This document shows, in pieces, positions 10,108-10,196 of a stretch of DNA of 64,000 nt. Numbering within the stretch: the first letter of the stretch is position 1; every line of letters begins with the position of its first letter. A model generated the notes under the pieces. That model was not told the origin of the DNA. It saw nothing but the letters and a program-made list of their open reading frames with translations, and did not search any database. A program made the translations under genes and the position numbers. This DNA comes from Patescibacteria group bacterium. GTDB lineage: Bacteria > Patescibacteriota > JACPGU01. The DNA is taken from the NCBI GenBank assembly GCA_022703645.1, contig JAKLDG010000001.1, forward strand, positions 338,814 to 402,813, in the 5' to 3' direction.

Positions 10108-10196
10108 AAAATATCCAATACTCAATATCCAATATCCAATCAATAACCAATAAATTAAATATCCAATTGGGTATTGGGTGTTGGATATTGGTCATT
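10108..10196. repeat. ATCCAAT/ATTGGAT heptamer-arm hairpin element, copy 1
   Basis: Left arm is tandem ATATCCAAT-like units, centre is CCAATTGG, right arm is ATTGGGT/ATTGGAT units. Shares TTGGATATTGGTCATT with 61261-61285. Confidence 0.7.

Follow-up and report, generated by a model that had tools for sequence, protein, structure and literature searches.

Small palindromic insertions occur in Rickettsia, where the Rickettsia palindromic elements (RPE) can sit in frame inside protein genes, and short gene-less forms of the intervening sequence (IVS) occur in enterobacterial rRNA. Cyanobacteria carry tandem heptamers, the STRR units CCCCAAT, TTGGTCA and CAACAGT, which Mazel and colleagues reportedly described in 1990. 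In Coxiella, RNase III excises the 23S rRNA IVS at a 28-bp stem of terminal inverted repeats, and two to three tandem GACAGAT heptamers, variable in number among strains, precede the ATG of the gene for S23p, a homopentamer (Warrier et al. 2016, PMC4990558). Each Xanthomonas genome contains 70-75 pairs of GGGAATC heptamer arrays in inverted, convergent orientation (Rehm et al. 2015, PMC4692102), and X. campestris encodes an S23p of solved structure (PMC4990558). Open reading frames (ORFs) for IVS proteins (IVPs) lie within rRNA insertions of Patescibacteria (CPR) bacteria (Tsurumaki et al. 2024), and direct repeats of the heptamer TAACTGA were found in Beggiatoaceae, Cyanobacteria and Bacteroidetes (MacGregor 2015, PMC4679880). 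Here we analysed a stretch of 64,000 nt from a Patescibacteria contig (JAKLDG010000001.1, positions 338,814 to 402,813; the window), which holds three hairpins, A1, A2 and A3, with arms of tandem CCAAT/ATTGG heptamers (Table 1). A sequence-only reading had flagged the three and knew of no described class with this design; the inverted heptamer pairs of Xanthomonas (PMC4692102) and the heptamers and stem of the Coxiella IVS (PMC4990558) speak against the latter. We suggest, with the balance of probability about even, that A1-A3 are IVS-like insertional palindromes that carry no gene and, once transcribed, would present their long stems to RNase III as substrates.

The three flagged hairpins are real and non-random. 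All carry (NNCCAAT)n arrays opposite (ATTGGNN)n arrays, as had been described. The 5′ and 3′ arms read AATATCCAAT ACTCAAT ATCCAAT ATCCAAT and ATTGGGT ATTGGGT GTTGGAT ATTGGTC ATT in A1, and ATCCAAT ACCCAAT ACGCAAT ACTCAAT and ATTGGTC ATTGGAC ATTGGAA ATTGGGT in A2. Tandem Repeats Finder assigns period 7 to both arms of A1 (10110-10140 and 10166-10191), to both arms of A2 (15732-15762 and 15812-15837) and to A3. The string ATTGGNNATTGG is found nine times in the window against 0.36 expected, and all nine copies fall at A1-A3; the arrays consist of three to five degenerate units, with TTGGTCA present once in each of the three hairpins. The inverted repeat of A1 spans 24 nt with 88% complementarity. 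Compared with dinucleotide shuffles, the plus strand of A1 folds with a z score of -6.2 (-31.0 kcal/mol, a 24-bp stem including three G-U pairs) and A3 with -3.6 and -3.7 on its two strands (stem of ~17-22 bp). A2 reaches only -2.2 and -2.75 and is therefore a weak, composite element, so that pairing beyond that of shuffled sequence, a check proposed along with the original description, is clear in A1 and A3 and weak in A2. The common 16-mer TTGGATATTGGTCATT is real as well, with its second copy at 61263-61278 rather than 61266-61281. Presence elsewhere in the genome, also named as a check, is borne out by a fourth CCAAT copy (L251 15751-15825), flanked by hisS and a gene for a prolyl isomerase, ~3.1 kb past the end of the window. 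No ORF lies within A1-A3 or the fourth copy, and the ATCCAAT unit is stop-free in all six frames.

All elements of the window are placed between protein-coding genes, and all four CCAAT copies stop 21-77 nt 5′ of a start codon. A1 had been placed after leuS; instead it lies upstream of this gene, flanked by a 76-aa ORF (10253-10483, minus) and the leuS start (10070, minus), with a minus-strand TATAAT box (10209-10204) just upstream of it. A2 lies where a YkuD gene (start 15620, minus) and the gene for RNHCP (ATG 15865, plus) diverge, and a promoter-like TTGTAA-17-TATAAT at 15702-15730 directly precedes it. Upstream of A3, a perfect TTGACA-17-TATAAT promoter (61152-61180) is followed by CIRCE (61185-61211), so that A2 and A3 each have a promoter-like site on one side and a start codon on the other. 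The CIRCE operator, TTAGCACTC-N9-GAGTGCTAA, here precedes clpC and not groESL or dnaK. The sequence-only reading was right that the window encodes an RNase III.

Table 1. Positions of the hairpins, the IVS-like module and the RNase III gene in the window.
Feature	Position	Strand	Family (units)	Description
A1	10108-10196		A (CCAAT / ATTGG)	5′ arm ~10110-10140, centre 10141-10165, 3′ arm 10166-10196
A2	15731-15843		A (CCAAT / ATTGG)	Composite element; 5′ array 15731-15765, 3′ array 15807-15843
A3	61221-61285		A (CCAAT / ATTGG)	Hairpin in clpC leader, 77 nt 5′ of clpC ATG (61363)
B1	24520-24975	+	B (TGTAAAA / TTTTACA)	Left arm 24520-24557, ORF 24554-24919, right arm 24920-24975
B2	26870-26979		B (TGTAAAA / TTTTACA)	Gene-less hairpin from B1-type module ends
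B3	30579-30683		B (TGTAAAA / TTTTACA)	Gene-less hairpin, same family as B2
C	10495-10608		C (AATTTTC / GAAAATT)	Heptamer-armed hairpin, z -4.6
D	11576-11685		D	AT-rich heptamer-armed inverted repeat in spacer between methyltransferase gene and 185-aa ORF; z -1.8, weak
E	5237-5295			25-bp hairpin in spacer between NusB-NUDIX gene and RNase III gene; z -3.7
RNase III gene	4527-5219	-		Ribonucleas_3_3 and dsrm domains

The connection to rRNA intervening sequences comes from family B. The ORF of B1 encodes a 23S-rRNA-IVS protein of the four-helix-bundle family (PF05635, 2.8e-18; TIGR02436, 2e-22), and the ends of the module, with units TTTTACA/TTTTGAT/TTTGACA in the right arm, pair over ~42 bp and enclose the ORF. 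Compared with the rRNA IVS, a stem of at least 20 bp is present in A1 (24 bp) and in B1, and an S23p/IVP ORF is present only in B1. B2 and B3 match the ends of this module with alignment scores of 47-61 (null 17-20, standard deviation ~3), the first codons ATGACAGATG included, which marks them, by sequence, as gene-less derivatives of a B1-type module. The right arm of B2, on the minus strand, still holds ATCAAAATGTAAAATGACAGATG, the IVP start region, and B3 fills the space between two divergent genes, one encoding a PspC-domain protein (start 30548, minus), the other a member of the exonuclease/phosphatase family (ATG 30686).

The same nesting is found in other genomes. IVP (PF05635) genes are bracketed by inverted heptamer arrays in the window, in other Patescibacteria, in Kiritimatiellae and on unassigned contigs, with a unit that is specific to the lineage: TTTTCAA / TTGAAAA in a Buchananbacteria locus, which has a gene-less copy 11 kb away, GAATGAC / GTCATTC in L098, TAATGGC / GCCATTA in L192, and TTCCAAT / ATTGGAA in the Kiritimatiellae (TTGCCAATTCCAATTTCCAAT ... 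ATTGGAATTGGCAAC). One module with heptamer arms lies at L013 15786-16232, and in L133 CCAAT-type arms adjoin the IVP gene. The arrays reach directly to both the start and the stop codon of the IVP gene in the window, in L013, L232 and L235 and in others, and in minimum-free-energy folds of five modules the ends pair over 35-58 bp. When five Patescibacteria loci were aligned, homology ran from ~25 nt 5′ of the ATG to ~55 nt 3′ of the stop codon between unrelated flanks. IVP identity is 70-89% across Patescibacteria phyla, compared with 69% for the nearest LeuS, and in a sister metagenome-assembled genome (MAG) the module sits at another genomic locus. One identical IVP sequence occurs on 24 Kiritimatiellae contigs, next to at least four differently called upstream genes. 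Flanking inverted repeats exceed the control 95th percentile at 10 of 15 IVP genes (Mann-Whitney p = 1e-5), and a period-7 tract adjoins 7 of 15 IVP genes compared with 15 of 119 control genes (p = 0.003), in both cases with homologous modules among data points that are not all independent.

Three further observations concern these modules and their surroundings. Two near-identical CCAAT hairpins (245-302 and 1021-1078) flank a GxxExxY gene (TIGR04256, PD-(D/E)XK-like) on the short contig L131, which has this hairpin family in common with the Kiritimatiellae-like L133. At L142 1265-1832, arrays stand on both sides of a RelB/DinJ-like small ORF; the two cases suggest that hairpins bound small accessory-gene cassettes. 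In the Kiritimatiellae IVP loci L239-L250, called ORFs of 40-140 aa extend through the stop-free arms into the beginning or end of the IVP gene, and are probably spurious genes made by the repeat.

The window lies within a metagenomic contig of 205-207 kb from anaerobic-digester samples such as JGI 3300009776, identical in the ENA, JGI and Logan assemblies, and the host genome is probably smaller than 1 Mb. Its closest species representative is the Patescibacteria MAG isolate STD1_124 (locus L004), with 69% LeuS identity, followed by relatives at ~50% or less; the IVP homologues of the window protein belong to named Patescibacteria, and an 867-kb contig has the same IVP. The GC content of the window is 33-44%, and Rfam and tRNA scans of it gave no match (no rRNA and no other Rfam family). 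Seven is the best period in ~10 of its 45 intergenic regions, about a fifth, and among strict periodic runs with periods of 4-14, four have period 7 and one has period 8, compared with essentially none in shuffles. Heptamer tracts are enriched in Patescibacteria loci: there are 15 period-7 tracts in the 64 kb of the window, 5 in L004, 4 in L013, 3 each in L006 and L023, and 0-1 in each of the remaining three of the seven other Patescibacteria loci. By comparison, leuS loci that are mostly from Bacillota (Firmicutes) have 8 in a total of 1.24 Mb.

The CCAAT family itself is widespread in metagenomes. A two-arm pattern (CCAATAYNCAAT, a gap of 10-40, ATTGNRTATTGG) matched at least 118 loci. Among the matches listed, 81 form an ungapped stem of at least 18 bp and 60 one of at least 22 bp, most have extra in-phase units outside the pattern, and a minority are chance or coding matches; the contigs of the stem-forming matches listed have 32-72% GC (median 56%). 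Of 28 long metagenomic elements with heterogeneous units, 16 have arms that mirror each other in unit order more closely than permutation would give. In the viral collection, the 14 forward and 3 reverse matches to the pattern are all chance matches that lack flanking arrays (the forward ones fall into three groups, 11 of the 14 being one homologous stretch, and the reverse ones represent one further stretch), and the comparison of forward and reverse polarity is therefore uninformative. Unselected array pairs in the retrieved loci comprise two convergent and no divergent cases. In addition, CCAAT copies occur in frame inside proteins. A GT39 glycosyltransferase of Anaerolineae (Chloroflexi) carries one as ...NIQYPISN..LDIRYWIL... 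in a loop between transmembrane helices; orthologues have other heptamer-derived peptides in the same loop (NTQYPIP, ANRKSQI, VIGHWS), and distant homologues have a short loop with none of these peptides.

Hairpins with other units recur in the window, where families A to D are told apart by their unit. Of the further sites at which the sequence-only reading had seen the same architecture with other heptamers, C and D agree with it, whereas E is a good hairpin with a period of 9-10 and not 7. Element C holds an inner GC-richer hairpin, GCTATCGC-AAA-GCGATACC. In L004, the orthologous spacer between the methyltransferase gene and a small membrane-protein ORF contains a heptamer-armed hairpin, again with an inner hairpin (9071-9185), and its unit is AATTTTT compared with AATTTTC/AATTCTC in the window. 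Position and architecture have thus been kept at the C site while the unit drifted. The proposal that structure is conserved under a drifting unit therefore holds at this site, but as selected pairing it finds no support in the three flagged copies, given the permutation and strand results discussed below. L004 keeps the element at the C site and has no A1 upstream of leuS; with 69% LeuS identity, this relative is too distant to serve as an insertion test.

Some heptamer tracts appear singly or within genes. A 32-nt heptamer arm, AATTTTTAATTTTATAATTTTTAATTTTTAAA, is common to window 28731-28762, where it is a solo arm 3′ of a T2SSE ATPase gene, and L004 9073-9104; the two places are non-orthologous, and the LeuS proteins of the two genomes are only 69% identical. 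Period-7 tracts are found within coding regions at 36442-36477, 31750-31788, 58566-58604 and 2810-2844 of the window and at L251 12992-13032. The tract at 36442-36477 sits in a methylpurine-DNA glycosylase gene (36030-36707), encodes the peptide ..KFKNLDFENYLKITKLKIKNLTQ.. and has 24 nt in common with an arm of the L004 hairpin. In this glycosylase, a 176-position stretch of the Pfam profile is spread over 205 residues, and the tract may therefore be an in-frame insertion of a heptamer array. Near element D, a low-coverage contig from another sample (L087 1-45) places the end of the 185-aa ORF immediately beside the last part of the methyltransferase gene, a variant that lacks most of this gene and hairpin D (window ~10700-11700); the junction may be a deletion or an assembly chimera.

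According to the explanation we favour, A1-A3 would belong to a broad class of small palindromic insertions with arms of degenerate heptamer arrays. In its complete form, an element of this class holds a gene of ~120 codons for a 23S-rRNA-IVS protein (S23p / four-helix-bundle) inside heptamer arrays that pair end to end, the same layout as in the intervening sequences that are removed from 23S rRNA by RNase III. The sequences show the class itself, its IVP modules and the descent of B2 and B3 from module ends. Other gene-less hairpins would be derivatives or solo versions of these IVS-like modules, and the CCAAT copies A1-A3 would have the same origin. The elements may have spread by insertion. 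Where transcribed, the stems of A1 and A3 could be cut by the RNase III of the genome, and such cuts would separate cistrons and lead to processing or destabilisation of leaders. Replication slippage is the simplest explanation of the heptamer period, perhaps with added help from a protein that recognises 7-nt units.

Several observations weigh against an IVS-like origin of the flagged copies. Permuting the unit order of the 3′ arm leaves the number of Watson-Crick pairs in A1, A2 and A3 equal, so that their pairing is that of opposed arrays of one unit family and not a unit-by-unit mirror. Among eight elements, neither folding energy nor G-U pairs show a consistent strand bias relative to gene direction, and the antisense strand of A1 folds better than the sense strand (-31.0 vs -23.8 kcal/mol); selection at the RNA level on the sense strand is accordingly rejected. 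By eye, the A copies have only the units and the one 16-mer in common and are not alignable beyond the units, and the four copies show no target-site duplication at their borders and no conserved termini. No IVP or other cargo gene stands beside the A copies in the window or 10 kb beyond, so A1-A3 are linked to IVP modules by analogy with family B and the Kiritimatiellae, and the tests of the IVP association include the related modules mentioned above. Same-strain assemblies from several samples (L001-L003 over up to 20 kb, A1 and C in five sequences) are identical over common stretches, with no differences in presence or unit number. Finally, mobility, RNase III cleavage and transcription of the elements are predictions from sequence.

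The main rival to the IVS-like origin holds that heptanucleotide arrays grew by slippage in AT-rich spacers and were inverted by intrastrand template switching (quasipalindrome formation and correction), with neither mobility nor function. We regard such a mutational by-product as unlikely, though it deserves serious attention. Heptamers are the most over-represented class of long simple sequence repeats, ascribed to polymerase slippage by Mrazek and colleagues (summarised in PMC4679880 and PMC4692102), and the lack of alignable termini among the A copies, the unmirrored unit order of A1-A3 and the missing strand bias would all be expected of it. Likewise, the orthologous C element of L004 resembles drift in place, and the same loop of orthologous GT39 genes holds differing unit types. 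However, AT-rich CCAAT palindromes lie in contigs of up to 72% GC and in coding sequences, where growth de novo is hard to picture. The mirrored long elements of the metagenomes and the IVP modules, which take their heptamer arms along to new loci, also argue against it, and slippage-prone arrays should vary, yet unit number is constant among assemblies. Two related ideas were rejected. Telomerase-like break healing, in which arrays are added to both 3′ ends and then joined, is ruled out as a general origin by the mirrored order in 16 of 28 long elements, evidence that covers the metagenomic elements, A1-A3 being unmirrored. A contingency locus for phase variation is ruled out by the degenerate units together with the identity of assemblies across samples.

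Function at the RNA level could also account for the hairpins. The arrays might be binding sites for a single-strand nucleic-acid-binding protein that takes up ~7 nt per monomer, such as a cold-shock protein (Csp; Y-box core ATTGG/CCAAT), S1 or the pentameric IVP, and binding would open or close the hairpin and so affect translation or mRNA stability of the downstream gene. The constant position of the four A copies shortly 5′ of a start codon would suit such a role, although a compact genome puts any intergenic element close to a start codon. The presence of ~4-6 units per arm would match an S23p homopentamer, IVP genes travel with arrays, and MacGregor 2015, in a review of heptamer repeats, suggests Csp, S1 or CsrA as ligands of TAACTGA arrays and cites CspB, with one heptamer per protein. 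On the other hand, units differ widely between families of this one genome (CCAAT, TTTTACA, AATTTTC), which makes a single sequence-specific reader unlikely, the binding is predicted, and in-frame coding copies have no leader to regulate; we judge binding-site arrays to be quite improbable. We give still less credence to ordinary RNA elements, namely intrinsic terminators, attenuators or 5′ stabilising stem-loops. In their favour, AUAUUUUUGUU follows A1 on the minus (sense) strand, a predicted transcription start lies only a few bases from the beginning of A2, and the inner GC-rich hairpin of C could end the methyltransferase transcript. But the genes on either side of A2 and of B3 diverge, so that neither site calls for a terminator, and this role is rejected for both. 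Moreover, the AU-rich stems of 24-33 bp are unlike intrinsic terminators, the genome has classical short terminators with a GC-rich stem and T-tract elsewhere, between convergent genes of the window (e.g., 18600-18661), the sense-strand fold is not favoured, and Rfam gave no match.

Repetitive extragenic palindromes (REP) with their RAYT transposases do not explain the elements, because the RAYT-like ORF of the window goes with different, GC-rich palindromes that are unrelated to the AT-rich heptamer arms. This ORF (6579-7040, minus) matches NF047646 with 54 bits, below the cutoff of that model. The GC-rich family, GTAGGGGC ... GCCCCTAC, is in frame in two genes: at 6826-6887 it reads ..VGADPCVRPIKNGQTRGFAPT.. 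in the RAYT-like Y1 transposase ORF, and at 14559-14621 it reads ..VGAGLAPAKKGQPQGLPLQ.. in a tRNA U5-methyltransferase gene (13604-14923, minus). The RAYT-like gene of the sister MAG has a different palindrome with the same GTAGGGGC ends in the same place (L004 13228-13312). LeuS (7161-10070, minus) has a NUDIX domain inserted at residues 407-506 (Pfam, 3.6e-12), where it separates the editing domain from the second half of the catalytic domain. The neighbouring NusB gene (5307-6152, minus) has a fused C-terminal NUDIX domain, and a single ORF of 3677 aa with a Laminin_G_3 hit in precomputed annotation fills 11 kb (46501-57534).

If the elements are IVS-like modules resident outside rRNA, heptamer arrays would be candidate ligands of IVP, RNase III targets could be predicted genome-wide in an uncultured lineage, and spurious small ORFs and low-complexity inserts in real proteins (NIQYPIS...LDIGYW) would be explained. 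A bolder and rather doubtful extension is that heptamer-armed palindromes are the termini and solo remnants of pan-bacterial tiny mobile modules with S23p/IVP, and sometimes a GxxExxY nuclease-fold protein, as cargo. The rRNA IVS would then be the rRNA-resident subset, and the pentameric IVP would read the arrays with about one heptamer per protomer. If so, IVP would be coupled to mobility or to RNase III processing of its own element, and heptamer families such as STRR and the Xanthomonas arrays would be explained across phyla. One answer might serve three questions: why, among long repeats, heptanucleotides such as STRR, the Xanthomonas arrays and TAACTGA predominate in many bacteria; what rRNA intervening sequences and the conserved S23p are and by what route they spread; and what the intergenic DNA of ultra-small Patescibacteria genomes consists of.

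Like STRR, the window elements are dispersed intergenic tandem heptamers; ATTGGTC is TTGGTCA in a shifted register, and ATTGGGT / ACCCAAT, one base from CCCCAAT, makes the window units identical to, or one base from, STRR2 and STRR1 as these are reportedly given. STRR are mainly one-directional, near-perfect and found in heterocystous cyanobacteria, whereas the window arrays are short, degenerate, arranged as inverted pairs and found in Patescibacteria. The in-frame CCAAT copies of Anaerolineae GT39 genes recall RPE, but RPE copies are alignable over their full length, while A copies have only the unit motif in common and lack a signature of terminal repeats and target-site duplication. For the same reason they are unlike recently active miniature inverted-repeat transposable elements or REPINs; B2 and B3, in turn, do align to the ends of B1. 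The TAACTGA arrays are likewise intergenic and near start codons, and their patchy spread across phyla suggests horizontal transfer, but they are nearly always direct, with one inverted case in 170 sets (PMC4679880). The Xanthomonas pairs consist of two degenerate convergent heptamer arrays of ~4 units each on opposite strands, mostly intergenic and dispersed, which lie between the same genes in related species with varying length and sequence, as here. Their phylum differs, and their units are G-rich (GGGANTN) and form G-quadruplexes, a model (Rehm) that is ruled out for the window because its ATTGGNN / NNCCAAT units have no G3 tracts; the Xanthomonas paper (PMC4692102) draws no tie to IVP genes.

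The 23S rRNA IVS of Coxiella and Leptospira shares with B1 a terminal stem of more than 20 bp around a four-helix-bundle ORF of ~120 codons, heptamers that adjoin the ORF start, and a Shine-Dalgarno sequence that is poor or absent, and RNase III processes the known cases. Unlike this IVS, the window elements lie between or upstream of protein-coding genes and not in 23S helix 25 or 45, their arms are almost wholly heptamers, A1-A3 have no ORF, and cleavage is here a prediction. In the literature searched we found no paper on heptamer repeats in Patescibacteria, none that ties heptamer arrays to IVP modules, and none that joins any two of GxxExxY, four-helix-bundle protein, 23S rRNA intervening sequence and S23 ribosomal protein. 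The hairpins are thus not categorically new. They represent a poorly understood kind of element in a new lineage, with a previously unremarked tie to rRNA intervening sequences.

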